The notes under the pieces are model-generated. The model was not told the DNA's origin. It ran no database searches and saw nothing but the letters and a program-made list of their open reading frames with translations. Position numbers and translations under genes: made by a program. Positions 6,991 to 51,951 of a DNA stretch of 64,000 bases are shown piece by piece (within the stretch, counting starts at the first letter, position 1; the number at the start of each line of letters is the position of its first letter). The stretch covers positions 355,733-419,732 of the forward strand of contig JBAWZD010000001.1 of NCBI GenBank assembly GCA_037143195.1, written 5' to 3'. The stretch comes from a bacterium (GTDB taxonomy: Bacteria; Patescibacteriota; Minisyncoccia; Phycocordibacterales; UBA9973).

Positions 6991-7071
6991 TGCCCGAGGT
7001 GGGACTCGAACCCACACTCCTTACGGAATTCGATCTTAAGTCGAACGCGGCTACCATTACGCCACTCGGGC
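6991..7071 (-). tRNA. tRNA-Leu(UAA)
   Basis: The reverse complement folds as a cloverleaf: gcccgag acceptor, anticodon loop ctTAAga, long variable arm, ttcgagtcc T-loop. Confidence 0.8.
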
Positions 7072-7097
7072 ATTCCGACGCACTATACCGCACAATG

Positions 7098-7168
7098 AGG
7101 CCTGGGCGAGAATCGAACTCGCGATGAGGGATTTGCAGTCCCCTGAATTACCACTTTTCTACCAGGCC
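7098..7168 (-). tRNA. tRNA-Cys(GCA)
   Basis: Reverse complement ggcctggtagaaaagtggtaattcaggggactGCAaatccctcatcgcgagttcgattctcgcccaggcct. Acceptor ggcctgg pairs with ccaggcc, and the anticodon loop is ctGCAaa. Confidence 0.8.
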
Positions 7169-7225
7169 GTGTCGAAACACTCAGGAACTATACAGGTATT
7201 AGGGCGCGAAATCAAATCAAAAAGC

Positions 7226-7253
7226 TTGAAATTTCTTATAAAAAAGGTATACT
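7226..7253 (+). promoter_or_regulatory. sigma70-like promoter for the tRNA-Lys/tRNA-Leu(UAG) pair
   Basis: TTGAAA, 16-nt spacer, TATACT, about 19 nt upstream of tRNA-Lys. Confidence 0.5.
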
Positions 7254-7271
7254 GATGACTGTTTTATAGTT

Positions 7272-7344
7272 CCGCCCATAGCTCAGCTGGTAGAGCACTC
7301 GCCTCTTAAGCGATTGGTCGTTGGTTCGATTCCAACTGGGCGGA
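7272..7344 (+). tRNA. tRNA-Lys(CUU)
   Basis: ccgccca acceptor, D-arm gctcagctggtagagc, anticodon loop ctCTTaa, T-arm ggttcgattcc, 3' acceptor tgggcgg plus A. Confidence 0.8.
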
Positions 7345-25513: not shown

Positions 25514-25829
25514 TCCCCTGTAGCTCAGCGGTAGAGCAATCGACTGTCAGTAAGGCAGCTTCCTAGAGAAATCTAGGTCGAAAACGAGGTGAACTCGGTG
25601 AAGCCCACGAAAGCAATTTCTGGGGTAATACCGAGCCAAGCTCTGATATCAAATTCAGAGAAGGTGTAGAGACTATCCCCTTTGCGGGAGTACTCCGACA
25701 TCTGTCGGCGGAAGCGCCTCGGCCCTCACAGACCAGAAATGGTCAGAGGGTATGATATAGTCCACCCCTTTAAGTAATTTTAGGACAAGTGTAATCGATT
25801 GGTCGCAGGTTCGATCCCTGCCGGGGGAG
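25514..25829 (+). tRNA. tRNA-Asn(GUU) interrupted by a group I intron in the anticodon loop (exons 25514-25547 and 25792-25829)
   Basis: 5' exon tcccctg ta gctcagcggtagagc a atcga ctgt. 3' exon taa tcgat tggtc gcagg ttcgatc cctgc cggggga g. Spliced product is 72 nt with anticodon loop ctGTTaa, discriminator G, and acceptor tcccctg/cggggga. Confidence 0.8.
25548..25791 (+). ncRNA. group I self-splicing intron (~244 nt) inserted between tRNA-Asn positions 35 and 36
   Basis: 5' exon ends in U and the intron ends in G (omega-G). A candidate P1 forms between exon ctgt and intron ggcag near the intron 5' end. The conserved group I core elements are present: ttcagagaaggtgtagagactatcc (R/P7-like) and atgatatagtccac (S element GAUAUAGUCC, 25754-25763). 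Confidence 0.75.
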
Positions 25830-27533
25830 CAGAGTAGGACACACGTCCTCAAAAACCGCATTTCGTCCTGAAGTATCAAGTATATTTTTAGGTTCGAACT
25901 GCGGATTTTTTGTTTTTGCTTCAAGCAATCCTTTTTCGATCGTCTTATACAGAATTCCCTTTGTAATTATTACTTTTTTCTCGGTTAAAGTTAGGTTCGA
26001 ACCCAAACTAGAGAGTGCCTCCGTAATCTCTTCAAAATCGCCACTTTTGATAACTTCTTCCAATTCCGTGAGAATCTCGAGCTTATTGGTAACATCTCTC
26101 ATATCGAGCTTAAAGTCTTGTCCTACGCCCATTCTGGCGCGAACATTCGCCATTTCTCCCTTTATTTCTAACTCTTTTTCTCTAAAGCCCTCCTCGTCCG
26201 TAAAACCTCTTGTGTACGCATCAAGTAATCGTCCATGCTGTTCTTCGAGTCGCTTCATATCCTGATGCCAGCTGTTTTCGATCGTTTTGTCAGTCGTTTT
26301 CTGCTTATGTTCTAATATCTCTATGTTATCAATACACCACCTCGCAAGAGGTGGTGAGAGAGCAATTGTGCGGATATAATCATCTACAACCTGTTCACCA
26401 AGGACACTTTCGCTGAAGCTTTTCGCTGGACAATCAGGCACTTTCTTTTTTGTGCAGTGATAATAGATATAATTTAAAACTTTATTCTTGATACTACGTA
26501 AACCACTACCACATTTGGGACACGCACTTTTATTCGACACAGCAAACTTGTTTTTGCAATTACCACACATAATCTGCAGTTTCTTTTCAGCAGTAACTGA
26601 ACCACCGCAGTGTCCGCATTTTAAGAAATTCTTGTACGGAAATTCTTCTCTATGGGTGGATGATCGCGGATTACCTCTACGACGAATCAATTTGAGAATT
26701 TTGTAATGCTCTCGTTCTGTTATCATCCGTGGCACTAAGGGATTCACTTCATACCTGACAGTGTTCCCATCCGAATCTTTACCGAAGAAGAATCCTGCAT
26801 AGAATGGATCACTGAGCATCTTGTACGTCAGCGAAAGTTTCAATGGTTTACCTCCAAACTTCTTTCTCGCAACACTATGAAGCATAAAATCGTTCACAGC
26901 AACACGGTGCAATTCTCTGACTGAATATTTCTCTGTTAGAAACATTTGAAATAGTTTTTTGACGATTTCAAATCTTTCTGGATCAATCAACGTTTTTCGA
27001 AACCCCTTTTCTCCTCGATCATTCGCATATCCGATTTTTGCAATTCCGGGCGGATATCCCATCTGTCGCTTTTTCACAAGCCCGCGCTTAACGTTCTCGC
27101 CCTTGTTGTCGTTCTCCATCTTTGCCTGACTACAGAGCATCGTGAAGAAAAACTTGTCAGAGGGTGTATTTCGGAATATCTGTTGTTTGGTAATTATATA
27201 TTTTAATTTTTCCTCATCTAACAAATCAACCAGTCGCCCAGCATCTCCAGCATTTCTCGAAAGACGATCAGGGTGCCACGTGATAATTGCTTGCACGCTA
27301 CCTTTGTTAATATCTTTAACCATCTGCTCAAAGACAGGTCGTTGTCCTGATTTCTTTGCTGATTTTGCTTCGGTCAATTTTTCGCTTTCTTGTAATTCAA
27401 AACCATAGCTTATAGCAAGTTTATCTGTCTCAGCTTTTTGTGATTCTATCGACAATGCCTGACGTTCTTCTTGCTCGCTTGATTTGCGATTATATGAGCG
27501 TGCTTTAAGTCCTTTGAATTCACCTTTATCCAT
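25770..27533 (-). CDS. large serine recombinase (phage-integrase-type, resolvase/invertase catalytic domain plus recombinase and zinc-ribbon domains)
   Basis: N-terminus ARSYNRKSSEQEERQALSIESQ (catalytic Ser region), central recombinase domain, Cys cluster CGHCGGSV...CGNCKNKF...CPKCGSG, coiled-coil tail. The 3' end (…LPRQGSNLRPIDY) is encoded antisense to the tRNA-Asn T-arm and 3' exon. Confidence 0.85.
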   Translation of the reverse strand: MDKGEFKGLKARSYNRKSSEQEERQALSIESQKAETDKLAISYGFELQESEKLTEAKSAKKSGQRPVFEQMVKDINKGSVQAIITWHPDRLSRNAGDAGRLVDLLDEEKLKYIITKQQIFRNTPSDKFFFTMLCSQAKMENDNKGENVKRGLVKKRQMGYPPGIAKIGYANDRGEKGFRKTLIDPERFEIVKKLFQMFLTEKYSVRELHRVAVNDFMLHSVARKKFGGKPLKLSLTYKMLSDPFYAGFFFGKDSDGNTVRYEVNPLVPRMITEREHYKILKLIRRRGNPRSSTHREEFPYKNFLKCGHCGGSVTAEKKLQIMCGNCKNKFAVSNKSACPKCGSGLRSIKNKVLNYIYYHCTKKKVPDCPAKSFSESVLGEQVVDDYIRTIALSPPLARWCIDNIEILEHKQKTTDKTIENSWHQDMKRLEEQHGRLLDAYTRGFTDEEGFREKELEIKGEMANVRARMGVGQDFKLDMRDVTNKLEILTELEEVIKSGDFEEITEALSSLGSNLTLTEKKVIITKGILYKTIEKGLLEAKTKNPQFEPKNILDTSGRNAVFEDVCPTLLPRQGSNLRPIDYTCPKIT

Positions 27534-27591
27534 ATAGGTTACATAACAACACATACCAAGTAATGGCTTCGAAGTCCATACCCAGCGGTTA

Positions 27592-27759
27592 TTAGCGATT
27601 ATTTTTTATAATGCGCCTGCAGGCGTGTTTCTTTGCCAGCATTGCCATTCGTAGGAGTCGAGTCGCGAGCTCAACGGCTTCAGCATGCGACAACTGAACA
27701 CCATAATCCTGATCGATTATTTCGATAAGTCGGCTAAGTTGTTTCGCTGATAAGTCCAT
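27592..27759 (-). CDS. small helical protein immediately upstream of the recombinase (candidate Xis/RDF or regulator)
   Basis: MDLSAKQLSRLIEIIDQDYGVQLSHAEAVELATRLLRM.... A 14-bp inverted repeat (27761-27802) overlaps its start. Confidence 0.35.
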   Translation of the reverse strand: MDLSAKQLSRLIEIIDQDYGVQLSHAEAVELATRLLRMAMLAKKHACRRIIKNNR

Positions 27760-27896
27760 ACAAAATGGCCAACAGGACGGTGACTTCCTGCTGGCCATTT
27801 TGTATGACGTCACCGTATGGTCAACGCAAAACGCGCTACCACATTTCTATGGTGACGCGTTTTGATTCGATAATCTCCCTAGGTTTTAGAGGGTCT

Positions 27897-28655
27897 CTAA
27901 AACCTCTTATTTTTGAGTTTGTTGTACTCAGTGACAACCCGCTTAATTGTCGCAGTACTGACCTTAATCTTATCTTCATTACTTAAGATTTTTTGAATAA
28001 TCATTTCCTTTGTCTGATCCACGCACGTTGGATCAAGTTCTTTTCGGGATTTTCTAGACAGGGCGTAGATTTTTTCATCTCTTTCTTTGTTTTGAAGTGG
28101 ATTCATTTTTTCAGGTTTTTTCTGTGTTTGCTCCATGAGAGAATCCTGAATTCTTTCCCAGTTCTCCTTTATGAATTCTTGAACATCTTTGTAATTTGTC
28201 GCTTCAGGAAAAATAAAAAGTTTAACGAATGGTTGCTTCACCGCGACATAAAGATCATCTAGACATTGAAATTTAGAACCGTATTTGTACGCATCTGTAT
28301 CCAAGACAGCAATAGTGTTCTTTGTTTTTCGTTTGATTGCTCCATCTTCATGTTTTTTCATTTTTCTGGTTTCGGGATCACCGAAATAAAGATAGTCAAA
28401 TAAGAAATCTCTATCTAACAATGACACTCCGTACTTTTTTGCAAGATTTATTTGTTCAAGGAACAGATCTTCTGTCATATTTGCATCTAGTCCTTTTATC
28501 CAATGAGTTTTGAGTATCTCTTTCTCGAATCCAAATATTGGCATCTTAAATTTACGACGTATATTGGCTACATCTTCCCAAAAAACGTCACTGAAGGTTA
28601 TCTTATATAACTGATCCTCAAGCCGAGATACTGTCTCGGCGTCACCGCTATTCAT
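27897..28655 (-). CDS. hypothetical protein (island)
   Basis: 252 aa, AT-rich codon usage, no recognisable motif. Confidence 0.5.
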   Translation of the reverse strand: MNSGDAETVSRLEDQLYKITFSDVFWEDVANIRRKFKMPIFGFEKEILKTHWIKGLDANMTEDLFLEQINLAKKYGVSLLDRDFLFDYLYFGDPETRKMKKHEDGAIKRKTKNTIAVLDTDAYKYGSKFQCLDDLYVAVKQPFVKLFIFPEATNYKDVQEFIKENWERIQDSLMEQTQKKPEKMNPLQNKERDEKIYALSRKSRKELDPTCVDQTKEMIIQKILSNEDKIKVSTATIKRVVTEYNKLKNKRF

Positions 28656-28923
28656 ATACCCAAAGTGTACCAGAAAGTGCCGTTTATGCTATGATAATTT
28701 TGTACCGCAAGGTATTCGAACAATTTAATATGAAAGTAACCTAAACCATCGCTTCGGCGGTGGCATGGTGAAAAAATCCGACTAAGGAGCAAACAACCCA
28801 TCATATGGGGGCTTCCTTAGTCGGTCATACGTCGAAAGGCGTATGGATGTCGCAAGACATCACCCCTGTGATGGGCTTTTTGCTGTCCATTTAGGGGGTT
28901 TTATCAGACTTTAAAATAACATT

Positions 28924-29127
28924 ATGGAAATAGCTATAATCATTTTATTAGTGATCATTGTTTTTCAATTATCGGCAATGAATGGGAATTTAAGAATCAT
29001 CGATCAAACACTGGAGGGTATCAGAGAAATGTCTGAGATGAGTGCTGGCCAACGCTGGGAGCACGATTTAAAAATTGACGATCCTGAAGAATATAAACGC
29101 TACCAAAATAGGGATCGTTCTTATTAA
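28924..29127 (+). CDS. hypothetical small membrane-anchored protein (island)
   Basis: 67 aa, N-terminal TM helix MEIAIIILLVIIVFQLSA. Confidence 0.35.
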   Translation: MEIAIIILLVIIVFQLSAMNGNLRIIDQTLEGIREMSEMSAGQRWEHDLKIDDPEEYKRYQNRDRSY

Positions 29128-29158
29128 GTTAGATTGCCACAGAGATATCTAACTCAAT

Positions 29159-29488
29159 TTAATTTAGTTTGCTTTTCAAAAAAGCTATGCCATTTTGCTT
29201 GCCCTCAAGAGTTGTAGCGTACACATCATAATACACCTCTGTTGAAAGAACATCTTCTCCTTTTTTATTCCATTCTTCAACACGCGCATCAAGCCAAGTT
29301 TGTAAATCGTCCTCAGTAAAAGCTTTTTTAAAGTGATCAACGAAATATTCATATGAGGCGCAGATGTACACGCTAGAGTATTTGCTACCATGATCAGACA
29401 ATAAGCGCAGGATTGTCCAATATACATCCCTGTGAGTATCTTCTCTTAGTTTACTATTCTCGATTCTCATAATTTTATTATACCACAC
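29159..29488 (-). CDS. hypothetical protein, last gene of the R-M/defense operon
   Basis: 109 aa. Its start overlaps the stop of the DUF3800-like gene. Confidence 0.5.
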   Translation of the reverse strand: MWYNKIMRIENSKLREDTHRDVYWTILRLLSDHGSKYSSVYICASYEYFVDHFKKAFTEDDLQTWLDARVEEWNKKGEDVLSTEVYYDVYATTLEGKQNGIAFLKSKLN

Positions 29489-30290
29489 TGATTAGTCTTC
29501 TAAATTTTGCTTTTATTCTGTCGGTGCTTTCTTTTATTGAAGGTGATAATGTTCTTTTAGGGTAAACATTGAAACCTTTTCCTAAAATTGTATTAAGATC
29601 GGTATCATCTGATTTCCAAAAATTATCCTTTATGATGGGTAGAAAATTATACGCCATCTCCTTCATACTATACTGAATTGCACCTAATACTACGTCGTTA
29701 ATTTGATGAATCTGACTATATTCATTACTGATTTGAACGACAGGATAAATAATATAACGCAGATCAGAATAATCTATTCCATTAGCATAGGCAGAAAAAC
29801 AATGTCCGGTCATGTGGGAAGTAAACGCTTGCTCAAAGCAATCTGATATAACCATACCATTTTCTCTTATTGATTCGAGGTACTGATTAAATTTATGCAG
29901 ACAAACATTCATTCCATATTTTGTTGTCTGTAATTGGCGAGATTTATTTATTCTAAATTTAATAATCATATCCACGAAACTCATATCGTGATAGAAGTCA
30001 TGTGGTGCAAGATAAACAATAATTTTGCATTTTGACTTACTCACCATTTCTAGAATACGTTGTTTAAATTCTGCATGAATAGTAGCATCTAATATTCCTT
30101 CTCCATTCCAATTGTTATTTGTCCATTTTATTGGACGCTCATGTTTTATTCCATAATGACTTTTTAGTTTCAGTACCTTCTTACAAAGAGGGGCAAGTTC
30201 TTTTTCATCTACAATAATTCCACCATAAATGAAGAATTCGAATTTGTCGTCACTGGTTATATTGGACTCATCAGTAATAAGGAATTTCAT
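29478..30290 (-). CDS. DUF3800-like protein
   Basis: 270 aa. N-terminus MKFLITDESNITSDDKFEFFIYGGIIV matches the M..IDESG.. start characteristic of DUF3800. Sits 14 nt downstream of hsdR. Confidence 0.5.
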   Translation of the reverse strand: MKFLITDESNITSDDKFEFFIYGGIIVDEKELAPLCKKVLKLKSHYGIKHERPIKWTNNNWNGEGILDATIHAEFKQRILEMVSKSKCKIIVYLAPHDFYHDMSFVDMIIKFRINKSRQLQTTKYGMNVCLHKFNQYLESIRENGMVISDCFEQAFTSHMTGHCFSAYANGIDYSDLRYIIYPVVQISNEYSQIHQINDVVLGAIQYSMKEMAYNFLPIIKDNFWKSDDTDLNTILGKGFNVYPKRTLSPSIKESTDRIKAKFRRLISVV

Positions 30291-30304
30291 CTGTTAGTCA
30301 GTAT

Positions 30305-33271
30305 TTATTTATTCATCTTCTTGACCACATATTCGAACACTTTCTCTTGGACGAATTTCTTGAGTTCTGGACTCTGATCAAGTTTTTGATACAAGCTGAA
30401 GTGATTGTCGAGCACGCCAACAAGCTCGTCTTGAAAGAGCTGATCAAATTTCAATTTCGCAGAATCCTTGCTGTTATTTTCTACAGAACCTCTCAGCACT
30501 TCACTTGCAAGAAGTCGCTTACTCAAGTCATTGAGAATAACTCGATCACCATCAGTGAAATTCGTACCGTATCGTTCATTGATTTCTTTTATGATTTTTG
30601 ATAGCGCGTCTCGTTCATCTTCGGTTGAACCCTTACTATCTCCACTACCCATTGGATCGATAACTCCTTCAGTATTTTCAAGTTGAACATTCTTTTCTCC
30701 AGTCTTTTCAATTCTATATGTTGCCATATCTATCGCTTCAAGCACTTCATACGGAAGTGGATTTTCTCGTCTTGGTAATTTCTTAATCAGAAACTTCAGG
30801 AAGATATATAGCTTCTCAAGCTGAGGATCTTCAAATGTAACAATCTGCGAGATGAATGCGTATTTTTTGAGATAGTCGAATACAGTTGTTTTGAAACTTT
30901 CCATTTCTTCTTCAGTAAGATTTTCTTCTTGGATTCTTGAAACGACACCATCAATTATGTGATTGAGCTTATCCGGTGTTGCACCTGCGAAGTATTCATC
31001 TATAAACCCATTTACCTCGAAATCCGTGAAGAACTTGAATCCACGCACCTCACGCTCGAGATCGTGCAGTATATTCGGATTAGTAGCTTCTGAGAGCACT
31101 GTGGTGGTGTAATAGGGCTGAAAAGCGTCCTTAATCTCGTCTGTTTGATTCACAAAGTCGAGAACGAACGTATCGTCCTTTCCGTAAGTAGTTCGGTTCA
31201 ATCGTGAGAGTGTTTGAACTGCACCAACCCCTCCAAGCTTCTTATCGACATACATCACCGAAAGCAACGGCTGATCGAATCCTGTTTGATATTTTTCCGC
31301 TACGATCAAAAACTTATACTCGTCTTTTTTGAATTCTTCAGTAGTTTGAGTATCGGACACCTTGTTCATCTGCGCTTCAGTATATTCCAACTTCGTGTCG
31401 ACATCTTTTACGGTACCAGAAAAAGCCACTAATGCTTTATGGTGGTATCCTTTTTCCTTGAGATATTTATCAAACGCAATCTTATATCGAACAGCGTGGA
31501 GACGAGATTTTGTTACCACCATCGCCTTTGCCTTGCCACCGACAAGTGAAGCTATTTTTTCTTCAAAGTGCTCCACCATGATCGCTGTCTTTTTATCGAT
31601 AGCATGCTCATGGCGCTCCACGTATCCGATCATCAATCGCTGTGCTTTTTTCTTGTCGAATTCAGGATCGTCTTCAACTTTTTTCAGAAGCCCGAAGTAT
31701 GTTTCGTATGTCGTGTAATTCTTCAAAACATCAAGAATGAATTTCTCCTCAATAGCTTGTTTCATTGAATACAGAGAGAACGGTATATATTTTCCAGTGA
31801 GTGGGTCTTCAGCTCCAAAGAGTTCAAGTGTCTTTTGTTTTGGAGTTGCAGTGAACGCAAAGAAGCTCAAGTTTGGTGAAGCGACCTTTCGCGCTTTCAT
31901 GCGCTCAATGATTTGATCTTCCACTGTCTTGAATACTTTTTCTTCTTTCTCCGTTTCTTTTTCTGCTTCGTCCAAAGTAAGTACTTGTCGCAAATCGGCG
32001 GCAGATTCTCCGGATTGCGAAGAATGAGCTTCGTCAATGATGACTGCGAATTTTTTGCCCTCCACTTTTTCTATTGCATCAACAATCACAGGGAATTTCT
32101 GCAGAGTCGTCGTAATAATTCTTACTCCTGCTTCCAATGATTCCTTGAGTTCTTTTCCTCCATTCTCTATGTGTTTTACAAGCCCTGTCACCTGACTGAA
32201 GCTCTTTACCGTGTCTGAAAGCTGTTTATCGAGCACACGGCGGTCGGTAACGACAATAACGCCATCAAACACGTTCTTGCTTGCAATATCGTGTAATTCG
32301 GCAAGACGATGCGCTACCCATGCAATGGTATTACTTTTTCCTGATCCAGCGCTGTGTTGAATAAGATAGTTTTTCCCTGAGCCATTCTCCTGAGCATCTA
32401 ACACGATTTTTCTCACTGTCTCCAATTGATGATAACGAGGGAAGATTATTTTTTCTTCCTTACTTTTCTTTCCGTTTTTGTCTTCTTTTTCTTCGGTGAT
32501 ATCTTGTATGAAATTCCCGAGTAAATCAAACACACTGTCTTTTGACCAGACATCTTCCCAGAGATAGTGGGTTTTGTATTTTCCTTTTGGTGCATCAGGA
32601 TTGCCAGACGAACCATTGTTGCCTTTGTTGAACGGCAAGAAATATGTCGTAAGACCAGTGAGTCGAGTCGTCATATATGCCTGTTCAGTGTCTACTGCAA
32701 AGTGAGTCAGGCATCGCTTGAAGGATAGGAGTTTCTCTTTTTGATCACGATCCGTTCTGTATTGAGAAATAGCATTGATAACATTCTGTCCTGTAAATTG
32801 ATTTTTGAGTTCCACAGTAAAAACAGGGAGTCCGTTCACGAAGATAACCATGTCTAGAGAGTTCTCGTTCTTTGCGCTGTATTTGACCTGACGCATAACA
32901 CTCAATATATTTCCAGCGTAATCAGCGAGTGTTTCCGGATTTTTGTCATTTTCTGGCTTGAAGTGCGCAAGATGAAAACGCACCCCCCGATCGGTAACCC
33001 CATCACGCAGAACACTCAACAAGCCACGAGAAAGAAGCTCCTCATCAATTCTAGCCAAGAATTTACTCTGTGCTTCTCCTCCGTACTGCTCAACAATCTT
33101 CTGCCATGCTTCATTCTGAGTATTTTGAATAAACTCCAAAACCAGCTCTGTATCCATACAGAGAGTTTTATCGTAGGAAGAATTTAATCTCGAACGATAT
33201 TTGTGGAGCTCAGCAAGTTCCTTCTCGATGAATTCTTCAAATCCTTTTTCTTTTGTGTTTGTTTTTATCAT
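30305..33271 (-). CDS. hsdR: Type I restriction enzyme R subunit
   Basis: 988 aa. N-terminal PD-(D/E)xK nuclease (DMVIFVNGLPVFTVELK). SF2 helicase motifs: motif I IQHSAGSGKS, DEAH box FAVIIDEAHSSQ. C-terminal helical domain. Confidence 0.93.
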   Translation of the reverse strand: MIKTNTKEKGFEEFIEKELAELHKYRSRLNSSYDKTLCMDTELVLEFIQNTQNEAWQKIVEQYGGEAQSKFLARIDEELLSRGLLSVLRDGVTDRGVRFHLAHFKPENDKNPETLADYAGNILSVMRQVKYSAKNENSLDMVIFVNGLPVFTVELKNQFTGQNVINAISQYRTDRDQKEKLLSFKRCLTHFAVDTEQAYMTTRLTGLTTYFLPFNKGNNGSSGNPDAPKGKYKTHYLWEDVWSKDSVFDLLGNFIQDITEEKEDKNGKKSKEEKIIFPRYHQLETVRKIVLDAQENGSGKNYLIQHSAGSGKSNTIAWVAHRLAELHDIASKNVFDGVIVVTDRRVLDKQLSDTVKSFSQVTGLVKHIENGGKELKESLEAGVRIITTTLQKFPVIVDAIEKVEGKKFAVIIDEAHSSQSGESAADLRQVLTLDEAEKETEKEEKVFKTVEDQIIERMKARKVASPNLSFFAFTATPKQKTLELFGAEDPLTGKYIPFSLYSMKQAIEEKFILDVLKNYTTYETYFGLLKKVEDDPEFDKKKAQRLMIGYVERHEHAIDKKTAIMVEHFEEKIASLVGGKAKAMVVTKSRLHAVRYKIAFDKYLKEKGYHHKALVAFSGTVKDVDTKLEYTEAQMNKVSDTQTTEEFKKDEYKFLIVAEKYQTGFDQPLLSVMYVDKKLGGVGAVQTLSRLNRTTYGKDDTFVLDFVNQTDEIKDAFQPYYTTTVLSEATNPNILHDLEREVRGFKFFTDFEVNGFIDEYFAGATPDKLNHIIDGVVSRIQEENLTEEEMESFKTTVFDYLKKYAFISQIVTFEDPQLEKLYIFLKFLIKKLPRRENPLPYEVLEAIDMATYRIEKTGEKNVQLENTEGVIDPMGSGDSKGSTEDERDALSKIIKEINERYGTNFTDGDRVILNDLSKRLLASEVLRGSVENNSKDSAKLKFDQLFQDELVGVLDNHFSLYQKLDQSPELKKFVQEKVFEYVVKKMNK

Positions 33272-33275
33272 AAAT

Positions 33276-35150
33276 TTATTCTTTCAATTTAGCATGCACC
33301 GACAACACAAAATTATAGAAGGTTGTATATTTATCTTGTATGATTTGCTTGGTGTTTGTTTTTTTAACGACATCAGACAATACTTTGTTTGTAATCAAAG
33401 ATTTTAATTCTTTTAGATCGTCATTCGGGCTTATTTTTCTTAGTGATTTTAGTTTATCTTTTACTTCATCTAAAACAGCTTTCGTTGAATCAATTTGTAT
33501 TATTACAGAAAAAAGTTCGTTTACTGATTCAATAATAATTTCAGATGGTAGTAAATCTTCTATTGTAAAGTAAGCTTTACTTTGAGCTGAAAAATCATTC
33601 AATTCAAAGATATTATTTTTCAAAGAAGAGTTATCCTTAATCATGTTATTTTTTATACTCTTACCTTTTTGATCTGAGTCAAGAATAAAAAAACCTTTAA
33701 CTAGTTTATTATCGAAGAATTTTGCATATGTAGGCATTTTGTCAGCACTCTCAGAAGATATAGAACCTATATCTAAAGGTTTTATGTCAGATTTAAATTT
33801 TGATGTAAAAACATCAAACAAATCCTTATCGGTTCTACCTTCAAAAACTAACATATATGGTTTTATGTGTTCGTACACTGATGTTCCGAGTGCTTCATAT
33901 AATACTTCTTCTTGATATGGATTTTCAGGATCAATAGAATACGCACTTGTAACAGAACCTTTCGATACACTTCCACATTTCTCAACTCTTACATGTCGAT
34001 TTAAACTTTTTCGATCAACCATATAGATTGAATGCGTTGAAACAAAAACTAAATTGTTTTGCGCGATATTTAGTATCTCATCTCTAAGATATCTTACTCC
34101 GCTTGGGTGCAAGTGAACTTCGGGTTCGTCCAAGAGAATAACTTGGTTTTTTAAAATTGATTTTTTGTTTTCAACAGAAAGGTTAAGTAATATTGATACG
34201 AGTTGTCGAAATCCATCACTACGTTGAGACATTGCATATTTAGGTGTTGGATCATCCTTATCTTCTACGTAAACCGAACATGATAAATCTTGCTCGATTT
34301 GTATTCTAATCGAGATATTGTGTTCCGACCAAATCAAATTTATATGCTCAGTGATTGCTCTGGAGAGATCTTCCTGTAACTCCATTCTATTTTCTGCACT
34401 TTGTGATGCAAGAGAAACTGCGTAAGGGATATCATCTCTTTCAGCTATTTTAAAGATATTTCGAAGTGGAATTGACTTTGATTGATCTGTTGCAAATTCA
34501 TTCAGATTTACAGGTTTATTTATTAGATACTTGTCGTCATTAGGAGCCCAAAAAATTATTTTTGGAATACCTAAATCAAAAATTGTAGATTTTTCTGATA
34601 AAATCTTCTCTAAAATTTCCTTGTTTAAGATTCTTGCACCCGCACCAACAAGTGTGACGATACTTTCTTCTGTAACTGGTTCTTCACCCTGATATATTTC
34701 TTTGATTAACTTAATAGCGTTTTGTCCATCAATGAAATAGAGCCCGAGAGTTTTTATGTCATCAATTTCTATAAAAAATTGATCTATTCGCTTGTTCTCG
34801 AAATCAAAAACAACCACGCTTTCTATATTTTTAATCTTTATTTCTTTTGCCAAATCAAGAGGGATACCATTTTTACTCAAGTGGTCAACATAAAATTGCC
34901 AATTTTGAATTCCTAAGTTTAAACGAACTGATACTGATTCTTTTTTCTTCTGTGCCGATTTAAGACAATCAGTATTGTAGTTAATTGTTTCTCCTTTTGA
35001 TATAAGATTTATCGCTTTAAGTATATTACTTTTACCCGTCTCGTTAACACCCAAGAGTATATAGCAACTCTTATTGGCAATCGAATCAGTAGTCAAAAAA
35101 ATCTCTTTAATACTTCGGTAGTTATTTATTTTTATACTGTTTATTTTCAT
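33276..35150 (-). CDS. OLD-family ATP-dependent endonuclease (ABC-type ATPase fused to a Toprim/DUF4435-like nuclease; PARIS/Gabija-like), embedded between hsdS and hsdR
   Basis: MKINSIKINNYRSIKE... Walker A LLGVNETGKSNILKAI, signature-like SDGFRQLVSILL, Walker B/H-loop VILLDEPEVHLHP, VFVSTHS. C-terminal Toprim-like motifs MLVFEGRTDKDLF and GFFILDSDQKG. Confidence 0.75.
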   Translation of the reverse strand: MKINSIKINNYRSIKEIFLTTDSIANKSCYILLGVNETGKSNILKAINLISKGETINYNTDCLKSAQKKKESVSVRLNLGIQNWQFYVDHLSKNGIPLDLAKEIKIKNIESVVVFDFENKRIDQFFIEIDDIKTLGLYFIDGQNAIKLIKEIYQGEEPVTEESIVTLVGAGARILNKEILEKILSEKSTIFDLGIPKIIFWAPNDDKYLINKPVNLNEFATDQSKSIPLRNIFKIAERDDIPYAVSLASQSAENRMELQEDLSRAITEHINLIWSEHNISIRIQIEQDLSCSVYVEDKDDPTPKYAMSQRSDGFRQLVSILLNLSVENKKSILKNQVILLDEPEVHLHPSGVRYLRDEILNIAQNNLVFVSTHSIYMVDRKSLNRHVRVEKCGSVSKGSVTSAYSIDPENPYQEEVLYEALGTSVYEHIKPYMLVFEGRTDKDLFDVFTSKFKSDIKPLDIGSISSESADKMPTYAKFFDNKLVKGFFILDSDQKGKSIKNNMIKDNSSLKNNIFELNDFSAQSKAYFTIEDLLPSEIIIESVNELFSVIIQIDSTKAVLDEVKDKLKSLRKISPNDDLKELKSLITNKVLSDVVKKTNTKQIIQDKYTTFYNFVLSVHAKLKE

Positions 35151-36391
35151 ATTTTTACTTTTCCTGTTACGACATTCGATATTAACGACGACTTAAACTC
35201 TTTTAAAATTTCAATTGATTGTTCTGTCTTGCGGATAGCAGTATCAAAAAGCTTTGTTTTTTCGTTTAGTTTATTTACGATTTCTTTTTGTTTTTCTAAA
35301 TTAGGAAGTGAAAATTCATAGTTTCTAACGAATGAAGTAGTAACTCGTTTTTGTCCTGCTGTCCCGCGCATTTCAACTTCGCCTGATTTTCTGAATTTAT
35401 CAGAAAAAATTAGATAGTATAGATAATCAGCCAGTATCGAATCTTTCGGACGCATAACCATGAATTCGGTTGTGCCAAAACCAAACCCATTCTTTAATCC
35501 TTTCATTACTCCGGCTTTTCCGTTTTCGTAGCATGGAGTAATCTTGGCTAAAACAACATCTCCATTTCGAAAATAGGTAAACCCATCTTTTACCTCTTTG
35601 TATTTTTTTTCTTGTAGTTCAAGTTTTCCGTTCTCAGATATAGCTTCCATTGGTACAAACGAAACAGTATCTTCTAAGTCAGTGTCTGAAACAACTTTTT
35701 TTGTGGGATTTACTTGTACATGATTTTTAATTTTTACAAAATCACCTTTGATATCCATAATCATATGATTAACCAAAGCGGTGCGCCTTTCTTTTAGCAA
35801 TTCAATTTGTATTTCTTTTTTTTCTATAATTTGATCGATAAACGATGTTTTTTCATCAAGATAATTTGCAATTTTAGTTTGTTCTTTTGATTCAGGAACC
35901 GTAATTAAGATTCGTTTCATTTCGCTCTCACGAGTAGTCCAGAGATCGTCAACAATGCCTCGCCCCCAGCGATAAAACTCTTCAGAGAATAGATTACTTC
36001 TAAACAAATAATGAAAATACTTTGAGTCAAAAGTCGGGTTTCTTTTTCGGAGAACGTTGTAAACAAGAGAAACTCCTCCCTCATATTCTGACATTCCAAC
36101 AGCACCTTTTCTATCTGATCGCCCATTGATAGCTATATCACCAATCTTTACATGTTTTCGCAAGCTACCCTCGGCAACCTTGGCAGCATTTTCTATTTGC
36201 TTCTTAATACCACCATAGGTGACTGACAGAGGTTCATAATTTTCTTCAGTTACCTTATCATGGGGGAAATCAAATACTGATACAACTTTTTGCGATTCCC
36301 AACCTTTAGGAATTTTACCCAACCACTCAACACCCGAATCTTTGTATTCAGGATATTTATCGTATTTTTTTGTGAGTTTTAGTGTTTGCAT
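35147..36391 (-). CDS. hsdS: Type I restriction-modification specificity subunit (two target-recognition domains)
   Basis: 414 aa, duplicated TRD architecture with conserved central and C-terminal coiled-coil spacers. The 4-nt ATGA overlap with the downstream OLD gene indicates translational coupling. Confidence 0.9.
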   Translation of the reverse strand: MQTLKLTKKYDKYPEYKDSGVEWLGKIPKGWESQKVVSVFDFPHDKVTEENYEPLSVTYGGIKKQIENAAKVAEGSLRKHVKIGDIAINGRSDRKGAVGMSEYEGGVSLVYNVLRKRNPTFDSKYFHYLFRSNLFSEEFYRWGRGIVDDLWTTRESEMKRILITVPESKEQTKIANYLDEKTSFIDQIIEKKEIQIELLKERRTALVNHMIMDIKGDFVKIKNHVQVNPTKKVVSDTDLEDTVSFVPMEAISENGKLELQEKKYKEVKDGFTYFRNGDVVLAKITPCYENGKAGVMKGLKNGFGFGTTEFMVMRPKDSILADYLYYLIFSDKFRKSGEVEMRGTAGQKRVTTSFVRNYEFSLPNLEKQKEIVNKLNEKTKLFDTAIRKTEQSIEILKEFKSSLISNVVTGKVKI

Positions 36392-36392
36392 A

Positions 36393-36635
36393 TTAATTAA
36401 TTTTTAACAACCAAAGAACAATTCCAGAGATTAATGCAATCGCAACACCAATTAATATCTGCCCCATAACTGATTTAGGTAGTAATGATTGAGCTGTTTT
36501 AAAAATTGATCTTATTATTTTTGTTCTCGTTCCTTCATTTTTAATTGCATTATTAAAACCAATAAATTCACAGTCCTCAATTTTTGTGTCAGAAGCTTCT
36601 TTTGTTATATGAATACCAATAGTTTTATTTTCCAT
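36393..36635 (-). CDS. small protein with a C-terminal TM helix, between hsdM and hsdS
   Basis: About 80 aa from MENKTIGIHITKEASDTKIEDCEF... to ...ILIGVAIALISGIVLWLLKIN. Its ATG overlaps the hsdM stop by a few nt. Confidence 0.45.
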   Translation of the reverse strand: MENKTIGIHITKEASDTKIEDCEFIGFNNAIKNEGTRTKIIRSIFKTAQSLLPKSVMGQILIGVAIALISGIVLWLLKIN

Positions 36636-36639
36636 ATAT

Positions 36640-46371: not shown

Positions 46372-47511
46372 TTAATCAAATTTCATTCCGAGGTGTAAAC
46401 CACGCTCGCGAACGACCTGCTCGACACAATCTGCTGACCACGCTCCAAGTGTTGGAATGAGGAGCAAATTCTCTCGTGTCCGCTGAACTAAATCAAACAA
46501 ATTTTGAATACTCGCTTTTTTCAACAGACGAGATACTCGGTCAGGAAGGTTTAGATTTTCAAGGGTCACGCTCATTAATCTAGTTTTTTCAGTTTCGATA
46601 CTCCGTGCCTCTTTGGAGACTGACAACTCAAGATTTTTGATTGTATCCAGCTCATTTTGAATCGTAATTAACTTGTTCCACAACTCAACATAGTCAGAGA
46701 CTGTCTTACAAATGAAATAATGTTCATTGTTCAACTCATTCGATAAGCGCGAAATTGCATTCCTTTGGGTTAGCTCAAAAAACGCGTCGGTCACATCGTA
46801 CTTTTCCATCAAATCGGATTTGCTTTCGTTAGAAAGCTCATACTTGGCCTGAACGAATTCCTTCTCGCGCCAATCGAAGTTACCGATTCGAATTTTGAGA
46901 TACTCGATGAACCTTTCATCAAAATACCGAGATTCTCTCGTCTTAGGCGACAGAAGCATTTCGCATGTCGATGATGTAAGCAGGCTACGAATAGTCCCTA
47001 TTTTCAGATCTTCTGGAAAAGGAATTTCTTCATTGTGCATTTTTTTTAATACCTCATCGAGGTAGTGTCCTGCTGTATTTTGATCTTTTACTTCAGGATA
47101 CAATTTGTTAATCAGCGCTTTCCACCCTTCACAAATGCCGGGTGAAAACATGTTGCCTCCAGACATGTTTTTGTAAAAAATTGCTCCAGCAATAAAGTCT
47201 TCCCATCTGATTAAATTGAGGTGCTTAAACAGATGAGGTTTCAAGTCAATAATCGCGGGAGATTTCATCACAAGTGAACACTCGAGATCGTCAGCTACAA
47301 GCCACGCATATACCTTCAACAGGTATAACTTGTTTTCGGGGACAGCCTCCTTCTTCAGATCTACGTTTTTGGACTCCTCAGGGAGGTTGCTATTAACGCA
47401 ACTCTCAGTAATTTTATACAGTTCCGCTATGAGTTTAAGCGGGATGCTATTCTTGTACAGAATCGCGATGTTCCTCTTCATTTCTGGGGTGACTACTTTG
47501 TGTGTGGACAT
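46372..47511 (-). CDS. protein with a C-terminal RNA polymerase alpha-subunit CTD-like (HhH) domain
   Basis: C-terminus LENLNLPDRVSRLLKKASIQNLFDLVQRTRENLLLIPTLGAWSADCVEQVVRERGLHLGM matches the RpoA alpha-CTD consensus (LEELELSVRSANCLKRAGI.TLGDL..).. Start placed at MSTHKVV... (ATG at 47509-47511). The track's extension runs through an inverted repeat. Confidence 0.6.
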   Translation of the reverse strand: MSTHKVVTPEMKRNIAILYKNSIPLKLIAELYKITESCVNSNLPEESKNVDLKKEAVPENKLYLLKVYAWLVADDLECSLVMKSPAIIDLKPHLFKHLNLIRWEDFIAGAIFYKNMSGGNMFSPGICEGWKALINKLYPEVKDQNTAGHYLDEVLKKMHNEEIPFPEDLKIGTIRSLLTSSTCEMLLSPKTRESRYFDERFIEYLKIRIGNFDWREKEFVQAKYELSNESKSDLMEKYDVTDAFFELTQRNAISRLSNELNNEHYFICKTVSDYVELWNKLITIQNELDTIKNLELSVSKEARSIETEKTRLMSVTLENLNLPDRVSRLLKKASIQNLFDLVQRTRENLLLIPTLGAWSADCVEQVVRERGLHLGMKFD

Positions 47512-47714
47512 ATATTTTGATTTTAACGGTTGCCACAAAAGATTGGTGACGCTTCTCTGGCAACCGTTAAAACCATATTTTTCAATGAAATAATCAACCA
47601 TGAATACTACACATATATTCACAAATGTCAAATTATCCACGTTTCAAAGTTGGCCAATTATGGCTCAACGATGTTACGTTAATTGTGATCAACGTTCCTG
47701 CTATTACACATGTG

Positions 47715-48020
47715 TTAGCGATGCGGACATCCAGCCCAACAACACGGACGGCGCTTCCCTTTCAAAAGATTTTCGCTCATGATTCGCATTCGGCGATTGC
47801 GTGTTTCAAGTTTCTTTGCAGAAGTAATCCAACAAATCCATTCGTTACGCGCGAGCGGAGTGAGGTCTTTCCATAGTGTCGATATATCTTGTTTTGATGC
47901 GAGTATTTGCTGCACATCAAGCGGGACTCGATGCACCATCTTCGCGACGACTTGTTTCTGTGTCATAGGTTCTATATTACCAAAATCTCGTCTCGAGCGC
48001 CCTGTGTATGATTGTTCCAT
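47715..48020 (-). CDS. YdeI/OmpD-associated (OmdA) family protein
   Basis: C-terminal signature LTPLARNEWICWITSAKKLETRNRRMRIMSENLLKGKRR (W..WI.SAKK.ETR..R). Confidence 0.55.
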   Translation of the reverse strand: MEQSYTGRSRRDFGNIEPMTQKQVVAKMVHRVPLDVQQILASKQDISTLWKDLTPLARNEWICWITSAKKLETRNRRMRIMSENLLKGKRRPCCWAGCPHR

Positions 48021-48128
48021 TTGACATTCTCCAGAAACTGCTTAATCTGTCAATAATACCTTCCTCTTTCATTATTTTGGTGACCACAGAAGATTTCCGC
48101 CTTTTGTGGTCACCAAAATAATATACGT

Positions 48129-48449
48129 ATGTGGCACTTCATTAAATCACTGTTCGTTTTCGAAAATGTGAACCATTTCATATGGTTTTTAGGATCAATA
48201 ACGATCCTCGTTTATCTCGTGGCAAATTCACTCTTGTACAAAAGGAGTGCGTTGCTAAAATTTCTCACGCAGATTTTCCTTATTCTTGCATTGATAGCTG
48301 CATTTTGTGTTTTTATTCTTTATCCGAATCTAAAAATACAAGAGCATACCTTCACCATACATTGTGTTTGGTACAATACATTATTGGGAGTCGTAACATT
48401 CTTGTTTCGACGAAAAATAGAGAAAATAAATCATAAAAAGCCAACCTGA
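48129..48449 (+). CDS. hypothetical membrane protein
   Basis: 106 aa, three hydrophobic helices. Terminator hairpin at 48434-48464 (aaaagccaac ctgaaa gttggcttttt). Confidence 0.45.
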   Translation: MWHFIKSLFVFENVNHFIWFLGSITILVYLVANSLLYKRSALLKFLTQIFLILALIAAFCVFILYPNLKIQEHTFTIHCVWYNTLLGVVTFLFRRKIEKINHKKPT

Positions 48450-49212: not shown

Positions 49213-51951
49213 TTATTTCGTCCATTTCGCCATAAGCATTACAAAATCCAGCACATCGACCTTCCCGTCACTATTAAAATCTGCAATATTACTTGTACCG
49301 GTACCTCCCCAATGTGCCATCAATGTGACGAAGTCGAGAATGTCTACCTTACAATCGTGGTTGGTGTCTACTTTTCCAAGCGAACACGTGTTGCCACCGC
49401 CGCCACCTGAACCTCCTCCGCCTCCGCCACCACCTCCACCTCCTCCACCACCGCCTCCGCCACTAGTGGTTGAGCAAGGGCTCGTGGTAAAGGTCATATC
49501 ACTTCCTGTACCGTTGCCGTACGAATTGACGGCAAGTGCTTGATAGTGATATGTCGTCGCACATGTGAGACTTGGGAGATCAAGATGAAATACTCCGCTC
49601 GTAAAGGTGCCTGTCGCGATGACCTGACCGCCATATGCACTCGTCGTTCCAAATGAGAATCCTCGTCCGGTTACCGTACTTGAGCCCGTGTAATCGATAA
49701 TTCCGTTAATCGTTGCGCTTGTCTGTGTGATTGAAGTCGCAGCTGATGTCGTTACATATGGCACAGGCTGGCGTGTCCAGATGAATCCAGGAGAATCATC
49801 ACCTGCAACAATCCACAAACCGTCTCTCGACATTCCAAGCGAAGCCCAGAACGCAGAACCGGCCGATGTTTGTGGAACCCATGTTGTTCCGCTATCAGTC
49901 GAAATCAAAATGAAATGACCATCAGCATCCGGACCACCTTCGGCAAGCACAATTACTTTGCCATCGTCAGAGACGCGAGCGTTGCTCCAATCTCCAGTAC
50001 CAGCACTTGTCATTTTGGTCCATGTCACGCCACCATCAGTTGAACTATACGCGTACCCGTGCGCTTCGACAGCGACAATATATGTTCCATCACTTGAAGC
50101 GGATACGTTTTTCCAAGAATGTGAACCGAGATCGGTAAAGTCTGCCCATGTGAGTCCACCATCGAGCGATTGATGAATGAGCCCGTTTGAGTCACTTACA
50201 ATAATGTCTGTTCCATTCTGAGCGACGGCGAGCGCACTCCACGGACCCGAACCAAGGACTGTAGCATCCGTCCATGTCATTCCTCCGTTATGTGAAATTG
50301 AAAGATATCCTGCGAACGTTGTGTATAGAATAGTCTGGCCATCAGTACTAAGGCCGAGCGCCTGACTCAATTGTGATCCAAGAGTCGGAAGCGCGCTCCA
50401 TGTTGCTCCTGTATCAAATGAAATATATACCGAGCCAGTTACTTTGTCTGAAGCAAGCATTCGAGTGCCAGAACCTGAGATTGCGACACTGTTCCAAAAA
50501 TGCGTACCGAGATTTGGGACTTGTGTCCATGTCACATCACCGTCGGTTGAGATATACAAATTTTCATTTGGATAATCGGTTGCAATCGTTGTTTGACCAT
50601 CATCGGAGGTCGCGATATTTGACCAGAAGTGTGCACCCGAACCGACTTGACGAATCCACGCCGAACCAGAGTACACAGTGGTACATGGAAGCGTCTGCAC
50701 CGTCGCATCACTACCATACGAAACACCATCAGCATTTGAAGCGAACGCACGATAGTGGTAGAGAGTATTACATGCGAGTCCGGTATGCACATCAGCGCCG
50801 GTAAATGACGGCGAGTTTCCTTGTGTAAAAGGAAGCGTGAGTCCAATCGTAACGTTCGTACCATATGCAGTTGTGAGACCATATTCGGCTCCAACACTTT
50901 CGAGGAACGAATCACCGTAATCAGGAACTGATCCATTCAATTGAGCTCCAAATTCACGAATCGTTCCTGTAGTCAAAGTCGTGACGACAGGTGGTCGTCC
51001 GTTTGTATAAATATATCCACCCAAATCTACAGCAGAAAATGGTGCACCGTTTGTCGTTGAAGCCACTGCTTGCCACATACGATTGCCCGCGACTGTATCA
51101 TGCACCCATGTAGATCCACCGTCATATGATTCGTACAATCCTCCTGCTCCGTTATCGGCTGCAATGAGCGTCATGCCATCCGCACTACTTGCGACAGATG
51201 ACCAACTTCGCACACCCGAACTGTAATCAGGATTCCATGTCGTGCCACTGTCTGTTGAGGTATACAAATAGTCACCGACAGCACCAGCCGTCATATGTGT
51301 ACCGTCTGCATTGATTGAAATACTAAGCCATGAACGATTCCCAGCGCTTGTAGCTTCAGTCCATGTTGCACCAGAGTCGTTTGAAATCATTATTGATCCG
51401 ATTGCGCTCGCAGCTGCAAGTGTCGTTCCGCTACTTGAAGATGCTACTACTTGCCACAGAGAAACCCCGAGTGATGTCTGGGTCGTCCATGTCGCTCCAC
51501 TGTCTGTTGAGAGATATACATTTCCGTTTGATTCAGCTGCGATCAATTGCGAACCACTCGCATTTGAGGCAATTGAGGCCCATACGTGTGAACCGAGACT
51601 CGTTTGCTCAGTCCATGTCACACCACCATCAGTTGAAGTAAAGAGTGATCCACCCGCAACGATAGCTGCGAGCTTTTGGCCATCAGCACTTCCGGTGACA
51701 GAGTTCCATTCTTGCGGACCTGTTGCAGTTTGTTGCGTCCAATGCAAACCACGATCAGTCGACGTATAAACGTATCCAGCGCCTGATTCATTGTCTACTG
51801 CGGCGAGTCTTGTGCCATCAGCGCTACTCGTAATCGAAAGCCAGTGATGCTGACCAGAATCCGTTCGCTCAATCCATGTATGGGCTGACGCGACGTGAGT
51901 AACTACAAAAAATAAAACTGCGAAAAATGGAACTATAGCTATTTTTTTCAT
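49213..51951 (-). CDS. secreted BNR/Asp-box repeat protein (>15 S-x-D-x-G-x-T-W units) with poly-Gly linker and C-terminal dockerin-like domain
   Basis: Signal peptide. Repeated STDGGVTW / STDSGATW / SNDSGATW units. GGGGGGGGGGGGGGGGGSGGGGG linker. C-terminus DTNHDCKVDILDFVTLMAHW...DFNSDGKVDVLDFVMLMAKW, a duplicated dockerin type I calcium-binding motif. Confidence 0.75.
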   Translation of the reverse strand: MKKIAIVPFFAVLFFVVTHVASAHTWIERTDSGQHHWLSITSSADGTRLAAVDNESGAGYVYTSTDRGLHWTQQTATGPQEWNSVTGSADGQKLAAIVAGGSLFTSTDGGVTWTEQTSLGSHVWASIASNASGSQLIAAESNGNVYLSTDSGATWTTQTSLGVSLWQVVASSSSGTTLAAASAIGSIMISNDSGATWTEATSAGNRSWLSISINADGTHMTAGAVGDYLYTSTDSGTTWNPDYSSGVRSWSSVASSADGMTLIAADNGAGGLYESYDGGSTWVHDTVAGNRMWQAVASTTNGAPFSAVDLGGYIYTNGRPPVVTTLTTGTIREFGAQLNGSVPDYGDSFLESVGAEYGLTTAYGTNVTIGLTLPFTQGNSPSFTGADVHTGLACNTLYHYRAFASNADGVSYGSDATVQTLPCTTVYSGSAWIRQVGSGAHFWSNIATSDDGQTTIATDYPNENLYISTDGDVTWTQVPNLGTHFWNSVAISGSGTRMLASDKVTGSVYISFDTGATWSALPTLGSQLSQALGLSTDGQTILYTTFAGYLSISHNGGMTWTDATVLGSGPWSALAVAQNGTDIIVSDSNGLIHQSLDGGLTWADFTDLGSHSWKNVSASSDGTYIVAVEAHGYAYSSTDGGVTWTKMTSAGTGDWSNARVSDDGKVIVLAEGGPDADGHFILISTDSGTTWVPQTSAGSAFWASLGMSRDGLWIVAGDDSPGFIWTRQPVPYVTTSAATSITQTSATINGIIDYTGSSTVTGRGFSFGTTSAYGGQVIATGTFTSGVFHLDLPSLTCATTYHYQALAVNSYGNGTGSDMTFTTSPCSTTSGGGGGGGGGGGGGGGGGSGGGGGNTCSLGKVDTNHDCKVDILDFVTLMAHWGGTGTSNIADFNSDGKVDVLDFVMLMAKWTK

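Follow-up and report, generated by a model that had tools for sequence, protein, structure and literature searches.

Region 4 of sigma-70 reads -35 elements, and the alpha subunit of RNA polymerase (RNAP) has a C-terminal domain (alpha-CTD) that reads A/T-tract UP elements via the minor groove; within RNAP, the alpha-CTD and sigma region 4 sit side by side on UP/-35 DNA (PDB 3N97). In the E. coli alpha-CTD, DNA is bound by the '265 determinant' (R265, N268, C269, N294, G296, K298, S299 and E302), and the acidic positions 258/259/261 contact sigma region 4. LuxR-type helix-turn-helix (HTH) domains, sigma region 4 and alpha-CTDs are, to our knowledge, double-stranded-DNA binders in every characterised case, and we know of no stand-alone regulator of the NarL/GerE/WhiA type that carries an alpha-CTD. 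The Patescibacteria (candidate phyla radiation, CPR) have tiny genomes with very few recognisable transcription factors, and their regulation is almost unstudied. The subject of this work is a gene on the minus strand of a 64,000-nt stretch of patescibacterial DNA (contig JBAWZD010000001.1, positions 355,733 to 419,732; hereafter the window), where the open reading frame (ORF) at 46372..47511 encodes a protein of 379 aa plus stop (hereafter the target). On balance, and with modest confidence, its sequence points to a stand-alone, modular, DNA-binding transcription regulator that is not an RNAP subunit, and that represents a divergent copy of an uncharacterised family with HTH, sigma region-4-like and alpha-CTD-like domains.

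Domain architecture, relatives and DNA-contact residues

The predicted order of the domains is an N-terminal LuxR-type HTH, a novel helical domain, a sigma-70 region-4-like HTH, a long helix and an alpha-CTD. With regard to the last of these, the initial annotation had described the final ~60 residues as alpha-CTD-like, and this is borne out: the string that it quoted is exact, and PF03118 (RNA_pol_A_CTD) matches aa 308-367 with 31.8 bits against a gathering threshold of 23.8 (E 1.2e-7). The compact helix-hairpin-helix alpha-CTD fold (aa 314-379; 46375..46572, minus strand) appears to be retained in the structure predicted by AlphaFold2, which was unusable when made from the single sequence (pLDDT 36) and reached a pLDDT of 86.5 with a 25-sequence family alignment. 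PDB 3N97 chains are among the Foldseek matches for this part of the model, and the PDB sequences matched by the target with phmmer are RpoA C-terminal domains only. The alpha-CTD is already annotated in GenBank, where the product of the same gene (MEI8130263.1), from a 451,635-bp contig of a metagenome-assembled genome (MAG), is a 'DNA-directed RNA polymerase subunit alpha C-terminal domain-containing protein'. The NCBIfam rpoA models cover only aa ~284-378, with 38.4 bits against a cutoff of 302 and 37.4 against 227.8, and neither PF01000 (RNA_pol_A_bac) nor PF01193 (RNA_pol_L) matches the target at E<=10. The remark that the preceding ~320 residues are unrelated to RpoA thus holds, but they are not anonymous, as a LuxR-like and a sigma region-4-like HTH had been missed.

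The probable LuxR/GerE-type HTH occupies aa 9-48 (47368..47487, minus strand). A profile of the first ~205 residues of the family matches the DNA-binding domain of NarL over aa 11-49 (E 1.2e-3), single relatives match HTH_23, HTH_7 or GerE in Pfam over this region, and the AlphaFold2 model places its helices at residues 9-20, 25-32 and 36-41. The following domain, predicted to be all-helical with a pLDDT of about 90, is specific to the family (aa 58-198; 46918..47340, minus strand); it contains the motifs LLKLYAWLxAD, YLxLxxWE, EGYRxLI, MHxEEIPFP and RYFD (alignment A1), and has no match in Pfam, NCBIfam, PHROG, PADLOC or the PDB sequences. The second HTH (aa 199-262; 46726..46917, minus strand) resembles sigma-70 region 4 with a degenerate recognition helix. 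When aligned through the family profile with hhalign, target residues 206-261 correspond to residues 545-603 of E. coli sigma-70 (Prob 88.9 %), and positions 202-262 of the profile match solved sigma region-4 domains (SigA, RpoD 1tty) at ~1e-7. A single long helix (aa 271-313; 46573..46701, minus strand; pLDDT 57-84 in the AlphaFold2 model) leads to the alpha-CTD and might serve as a coiled-coil or dimerisation linker. This is the most length-variable part of the family, and the target has the shortest linker.

HMMER, run exhaustively against 1.84 billion cluster representatives, matched 143 clusters. Among them are 18 full-length relatives that are collinear with the target (376-432 aa, besides one fragment of 194 aa), with 27-41 % identity and E-values of 4.7e-43 to 5.5e-22 over aa 1-330 and the CTD (E<1e-30 in 14 clusters), and 7 remoter relatives that match over the N-terminal ~230-340 aa. 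The family is rare, with ~25 clusters, and the target shares with it a collinear homology that includes four of the motifs of the helical domain (LLKLYAWLxAD, YLxLxxWE, MHxEEIPFP and RYFD). PF03118 is found in all 25 members (best 7e-26) and Sigma70_r4 (PF04545) in 10 of them (best 1.5e-13), the target alone giving no Pfam match to the latter. Sigma-70 region 2 (PF04542) is not among the Pfam families matched by any member; sigma regions 2 and 3, sought by Pfam in all members and by hhalign, were not found, and residues 375-613 of sigma-70 align with the family in region 4 only. Other matched clusters carry alpha-CTDs in different settings: 97 represent non-RpoA proteins in which alpha-CTD-like units are repeated 2-12 times in tandem (the largest has 1,406 aa), and 14 of the 143 are single-domain alpha-CTD proteins without the N-terminal domain (NTD) of alpha. 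With these uncharacterised proteins, and with the ~130-aa phage proteins named 'RNA polymerase, alpha subunit, C-terminal' in BFVD, the earlier statement that free-standing alpha-CTD-like domains are rare is not supported for metagenomic sequence space.

A scan of the contigs of species-representative genomes retrieved mostly RpoA CTDs of Chitinophagaceae and one true relative, in a Candidatus Nomurabacteria MAG (Parcubacteria group, Patescibacteria), which is the one taxonomically labelled member. No relative was found in phages or plasmids by tblastn, in metagenome and viral contigs (IMG/VR, JGI contigs) by a peptide-pattern scan, or among the viral proteins of BFVD at E <= 1e-3, and neither the target nor its unknown neighbours match PHROG or PADLOC. 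A search of the literature on alpha-CTD-like proteins, PF03118 and CPR transcription factors returned nothing on the family, its published name included. The combination of a sigma region-4-like HTH with an alpha-CTD, in a protein that lacks the rest of sigma and alpha, is new in that no published description was found; the apparently narrow distribution, with its one labelled member, and the leader hairpin discussed below are new in the same sense.

The residues that contact DNA set the target apart from its relatives. When the E. coli numbering is mapped onto the family, most relatives keep seven or eight of the eight 265-determinant residues, whereas those of the target read R, R, L, T, G, W, S and C, so that three are kept (R265, G296 and S299). 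The acidic patch of the '261 determinant' reads E-D-x-D/E in most relatives and E-N-x-N in the target. Likewise, the E-R-x-R-Q recognition motif of region 4.2 is kept in about 10 relatives, and D-A-F-E-L stands in the target at the positions of R584/E585/R586/R588/Q589, with none of the five contacts kept. The PF03118 score of the target is the lowest seen, compared with 89.9 bits for the Nomurabacteria member. Similar substitutions are present in the alpha-CTD of another member, P0011, so variant alpha-CTDs recur in the family. As judged from the alignment and the model, the target appears to have retained the fold of both RNAP-derived modules but not their canonical DNA contacts, and its DNA specificity is probably altered or weakened while fold and leader element are kept. 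The binding of UP-element DNA, which had been suggested for this protein, is less likely for it than for its relatives because most of the contact residues are replaced.

In typical members, sigma region 4, in the major groove, and the alpha-CTD, in the minor groove of an A/T tract, would bind adjacent DNA sites as they do in RNAP. The protein would act as a regulator, probably dimeric and with the long helix as a possible dimerisation element, that represses or activates a small regulon including its own gene. The leader hairpin or palindrome, with its outer T/A tracts and GGTTA/TAACC core, would be the best candidate for the control element.

Gene start and leader hairpin

Residue 1 of the relatives aligns with the ATG at 47511 when the family proteins are compared with the window by tblastn. 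The GenBank entry starts at the ATG at 47601 instead, giving a product of 409 aa, and this choice would put the promoter-like site and the leader hairpin within the coding sequence. For both reasons 47511 was taken as the start. The promoter-like site is of the sigma-70 type (TTGACA-16-TAGTAT; 47604..47631, minus strand), lies 29 nt upstream of the hairpin and was found as a consensus match only. Sites of the same geometry occur at 6-7 of the relatives' loci. Downstream, a terminator-like hairpin from a consensus scan (46321..46353; 14-bp stem followed by a T-run) separates the target from the convergent gene 45375-46280 on the plus strand.

The leader hairpin of the target comprises ~57 nt (47519..47574, minus strand), ends 7 nt before the start and scores 65 bits with a covariance model. 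It was recognised as an inverted repeat and through its minimum-free-energy fold, the covariance model and covariation across 8-12 loci. Equivalent hairpins are found upstream of 8 of 12 family genes, including the target. A good -10 element of the sigma-70 type precedes them by 19-29 nt, and 5-16 nt (in most cases 5-8) separate their 3' end from the true start; this spacer is rich in A, and no Shine-Dalgarno sequence is visible in it. The common form is UUUU..GGUUA..AGAGRA-loop-CUUUUG..UAACC..AAAA, in which the purine-rich AGAGRA on the 5' side of the apex pairs with CUUUUG. The outer UUUU/AAAA tracts, the GGUUA/UAACC core and a G×G mismatch are common to the copies, and the other positions vary with compensation; the lower stem of the target's copy is a perfect 17 bp. 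Across the eight sequences, pairing extends to 91.5 % of the cells (71.0 ± 2.0 % in shuffles), and double (compensatory) changes are seen at 19 of 25 pairs; slid controls gave 0.06-0.15 against 0.64. With 12 sequences, the values are 89.3 % and 70.7 %, and 9 of the 12 share a G·U pair at one position. An intrinsic terminator can be ruled out on both strands, as the T-tract lies 5' and the A-tract 3' of the stem. Rfam holds no family for the hairpin and returned only chance matches to microRNA precursors.

Applied to 196 kb (the family loci and the window), the covariance model found only the eight copies at family genes and one copy in front of a neighbouring ORF. This second copy of the window (48070..48123, plus strand; 41.1 bits, E 2e-6, for a sequence outside the training set) has the apex CA(C/G)AGAAG...CTTTTGTGG in common with the hairpin of the target, and lies ~600 bp from the target. 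It stands 5 nt upstream of a hydrophobic small ORF of 106 aa (48129..48449, plus strand) that has an island-like codon score (-0.167) and no Pfam or PADLOC match, and which is a candidate for a co-regulated gene by virtue of this sequence. Outside the window, the recorded copies are at L002 1751-1807, L088 1966-2022, L093 5935-5995, L094 5936-5993, L090 9902-9958, L089 9906-9962, L082 900-961, L139 86-141 and 2370-2423, and L167 30-86. A metagenome scan for the pattern of the hairpin ends yielded three more good copies. Each lies 5-6 nt ahead of a small, unrelated ORF, and the genes with a hairpin beyond the family are a few small unknown or membrane ORFs. The hairpin is hence strongly associated with family genes and not exclusive to them (8 of 12, against 1 other match elsewhere in the 196 kb), and the link between protein and hairpin is associative only, since it also precedes unrelated ORFs where no family gene was seen.

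The same scan returned mostly a recurrent perfect palindrome of the form GAATTTTTGGGTTAT...GC-rich apex...ATAACCCAAAAATTC, found on many peat and wetland contigs. Such palindromes are present on L152, L160, L165, L194, L124, L184, L180, L141 and L161; their outer T-tract/GGTTAT ends are those of the leader hairpin, but they are strand-symmetric and may belong to an unrelated repeat or terminator family.

The fold of the sense strand is the more stable one in 6 of 9 copies and never appreciably the less stable, and G·U pairs number 19 in the sense and 6 in the antisense orientation, both of which point to an element that works at the RNA level. The foremost alternative is an RNA-binding translational autoregulator, in which the protein would bind the hairpin in its own and a few other mRNA leaders. 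With the hairpin 5-8 nt before the start and no visible Shine-Dalgarno sequence, such binding would control the access of ribosomes. The distance to the AUG in most copies and to the -10 element, the sense-strand bias with the conserved G·U pair and G×G mismatch, and the enrichment of the hairpin at family genes are consistent with this proposal. However, all recognisable domains of the protein are of types that bind double-stranded DNA, the hairpin is also present without a family gene nearby, and the protein is a putative binder. We therefore regard this alternative as unlikely.

Several observations weigh against a DNA-binding regulator as the reading of the target. In its behaviour the hairpin is closer to an RNA than to an operator in duplex DNA, and the three metagenome copies are on contigs where the family gene was not seen. 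Pfam applied to the target alone reports PF03118 only, with neither HTH reaching threshold. The substituted DNA-contact positions amount to five of eight in the alpha-CTD and five of five in region 4.2. DNA binding, dimerisation and a regulon are inferred for every member of the family, and the restriction of the family to Patescibacteria rests on one named MAG and on CPR-like contexts.

The accessory block and the loci of relatives

The target lies in a low-GC accessory block (25770..48449) delineated by composition, Pfam, PADLOC and cluster sizes. Between ~25.8 and ~48.4 kb the GC content is 0.32-0.41, against 0.45-0.50 in the flanks, and the synonymous-codon log-likelihood score is -0.19 to 0.00 in the core of the block (-0.054 for the target) and mostly above 0 in the flanks; the right boundary is defined by composition only. 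At the left end, a large serine recombinase identified by Pfam (25770-27554) adjoins a tRNA-Asp(GUC)-like gene (~25514-25829, plus strand), and a group I intron (RF00028; 49.7 bits, E 1e-11; gathering threshold 50) interrupts the anticodon loop of this tRNA. This intron-containing tRNA was missed both by ARAGORN and by the Rfam scan at gathering threshold. The 3' exon of the tRNA and the 3' end of the recombinase ORF overlap, which makes the tRNA the probable attachment site of the block. Att-like direct repeats were not found, either as a repeat of the tRNA 3' end or as another end-to-end repeat, which is a weak negative given that serine recombinases need very short cores.

A defence cluster recognised by Pfam and PADLOC follows (27897-39545). 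It comprises a DUF3800/PDC-M04A gene, a type I restriction-modification system (hsdR 30305-33271, hsdS 35147-36391 and hsdM 36640-38394), an OLD/AriA/GajA-like AAA_15-TOPRIM ATPase inserted between hsdS and hsdR (33276-35150), and SoFic (38409-39545; 2e-116). The Fic protein and the target form singleton clusters, whereas IF-2, PurB, PurC and PurH in the flanks have relatives of >=90 % identity on 12-18 other contigs; judged from these cluster sizes, the block appears to be strain-specific. The proposal that the gene is carried on an island is thus reasonably, although not rigorously, supported: low GC, codon bias, the recombinase beside a tRNA and the defence genes speak for it, and the missing att repeats do not. 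The neighbours of the target in the window are unknown ORFs and an OmdA-like gene, not an S13-S11-S4-rpoA-L17 cluster. In agreement with the initial annotation, which placed the true rpoA outside the window, a tblastn search with 25 family proteins, whose alpha-CTDs would cross-match rpoA, finds the target locus only.

Three further features were recorded in or near the block. A LOOT RNA (RF03000; 28738-28861, plus strand; 93 bits) lies inside it, between a 252-aa unknown ORF and the DUF3800 gene. A 717-aa unknown ORF (41416-43569, minus strand), for which Pfam, PHROG and PADLOC gave no match, contains two copies of a ~73-nt repeat that are 282 nt apart and 74 % identical (42969-43041 and 43251-43323). 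Just outside the block, a 912-aa secreted BNR/Sortilin-repeat protein (49213-51951, minus strand) has a poly-Gly linker and a C-terminal dockerin/EF-hand-like module.

The relatives are found in a different setting. All 11 of the loci examined are core chromosomal contexts and none is mobile, with the family gene (X) among genes such as rps, fus, mur, fts or rpoA, in contrast to the low-GC, strain-specific block that holds the target. The arrangement map-murI-X-murD-murC is found at two loci, in the Nomurabacteria MAG and on a second contig, rpsG-X-fusA at one, and rpsL-rpsG...rpmB-X in a relative on a 545-kb contig. Other relatives lie near ftsA/ftsZ, near the HU gene, rpsO and cca, at tig-clpP, at thyA, or in a polysaccharide cluster. 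At locus L093 (S13-S11-S4-rpoA-L17-L13-S9-X), the family gene (6001-7284) shares its neighbourhood with a complete rpoA (3477-4445) that encodes 322 aa with its own CTD, so that a family member coexists with a normal alpha subunit in the genome of this relative. For the relative, this answers the concern raised in the initial annotation that such a gene might be the only rpoA-like one of its genome. The alpha-CTD of the L093 family protein is 50-57 % identical to those of E. coli and Bacillus and 28-32 % to the RpoA CTD of its own genome; on this single data point, the alpha-CTD of the regulator is more canonical than that of RpoA.

A decoy formed by the alpha-CTD, the sigma region-4-like domain or both would titrate activators, take the beta-flap from sigma region 4, or heterodimerise in a dominant-negative manner with a family member of the host, and so reprogramme host transcription for the benefit of the element. 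The position of the target in a strain-specific low-GC block beside defence genes is compatible with such a role, as is the loss of contacts in both modules while the fold is confidently predicted; the target may be an extra copy, given that its relatives are normally core chromosomal. Nevertheless, that second, canonical copy in its genome is hypothetical, the acidic '261' patch for sigma region 4 is weakened too, and the target keeps the family leader element and a strong promoter-like site, as ordinary members do. The core chromosomal loci of the relatives, and the lack of relatives in phages, plasmids and viral contigs and of PHROG or PADLOC matches, also argue against the takeover or anti-defence alpha-CTD mimic of a mobile element that had been put forward at the outset. 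A decoy of this kind thus seems distinctly unlikely.

A decaying or non-functional paralogue, acquired horizontally or by duplication and now drifting, would explain why contact residues are missing and why the linker is the family's shortest. The low PF03118 score, the absence of a Sigma70_r4 match, the identity of only ~30 % to all relatives and the singleton cluster would fit with it as well. Yet the 379-aa ORF is intact and has all the hydrophobic and core motifs conserved in the family, every domain is confidently folded in the AlphaFold2 model, the promoter-like site is intact and the stem of the leader hairpin is perfect over its lower part. P0011 also carries comparable substitutions. 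Decay appears improbable.

A broader and more doubtful scenario, of low probability, unites several of these elements. The family would be a portable 'upstream promoter reader' that works in trans, built from a sigma region-4 module and a canonical alpha-CTD more E. coli-like than the cell's own; it would bind UP/-35-like DNA and bridge to RNAP or compete with it. The copy in the block, with mutated DNA contacts and with fold and leader element kept, would be encoded by the element as a decoy or dominant-negative form of this host factor. If true, mobile elements would have a novel means of rewiring transcription in their host. Finally, a true RNAP component, whether as an alternative form of alpha or as a new sigma factor fused to an alpha-CTD, is very improbable, the identity as alpha having been rejected for the lack of an NTD and scores far under the rpoA cutoffs, and that as sigma for the lack of region 2 or 3 in any member.

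Comparison with known systems

As a stand-alone DNA-binding regulator, which is the reading that we favour, the family would be a concrete, testable candidate for a regulator specific to the lineage, one that fuses two upstream-DNA-reading modules of RNAP, occurs in core neighbourhoods and has a covarying leader element; family and element together would offer a lead into gene regulation in Patescibacteria. The target would matter mainly as a regulator that was captured or duplicated into a defence-rich block and then diverged at its DNA-contact residues.

The multi-repeat and small phage alpha-CTD proteins likewise use PF03118-like domains outside RpoA. They share with the family the alpha-CTD only (62-66 aligned columns), and none of them has its N-terminal 300 aa. 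More than 100 non-RpoA clusters carry an alpha-CTD, which presents this domain as a reusable DNA-binding module. The NarL/GerE family and WhiA resemble the family in having tetra-helical HTH modules outside sigma factors, and the N-terminal HTH of the target matches NarL; WhiA, in particular, is a stand-alone regulator with a C-terminal sigma region-4-like HTH (PMC10243135). In contrast to regulators of these types, the family has no receiver or ligand domain, and its central 140-aa domain is without a match.

With regard to RpoA, the target's C-terminal domain is homologous to the alpha-CTD (PF03118; E. coli alpha 249-329, B. subtilis 1z3e_B) but is not tethered to an alpha-NTD, so that the protein would not be assembled into RNAP through alpha; moreover, R265, G296 and S299 are all that it keeps of the eight contacts. 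Compared with sigma-70, the family lacks regions 1-3, and its members are thus not sigma factors, while the residues that read the -35 element are all replaced in the target. What relates the family to both at once is the 3N97 complex, where sigma-70 region 4 (PF04545) and the alpha-CTD are adjacent on UP/-35 DNA: the family joins these two modules in one chain, in the order sigma region 4, long helix and alpha-CTD.

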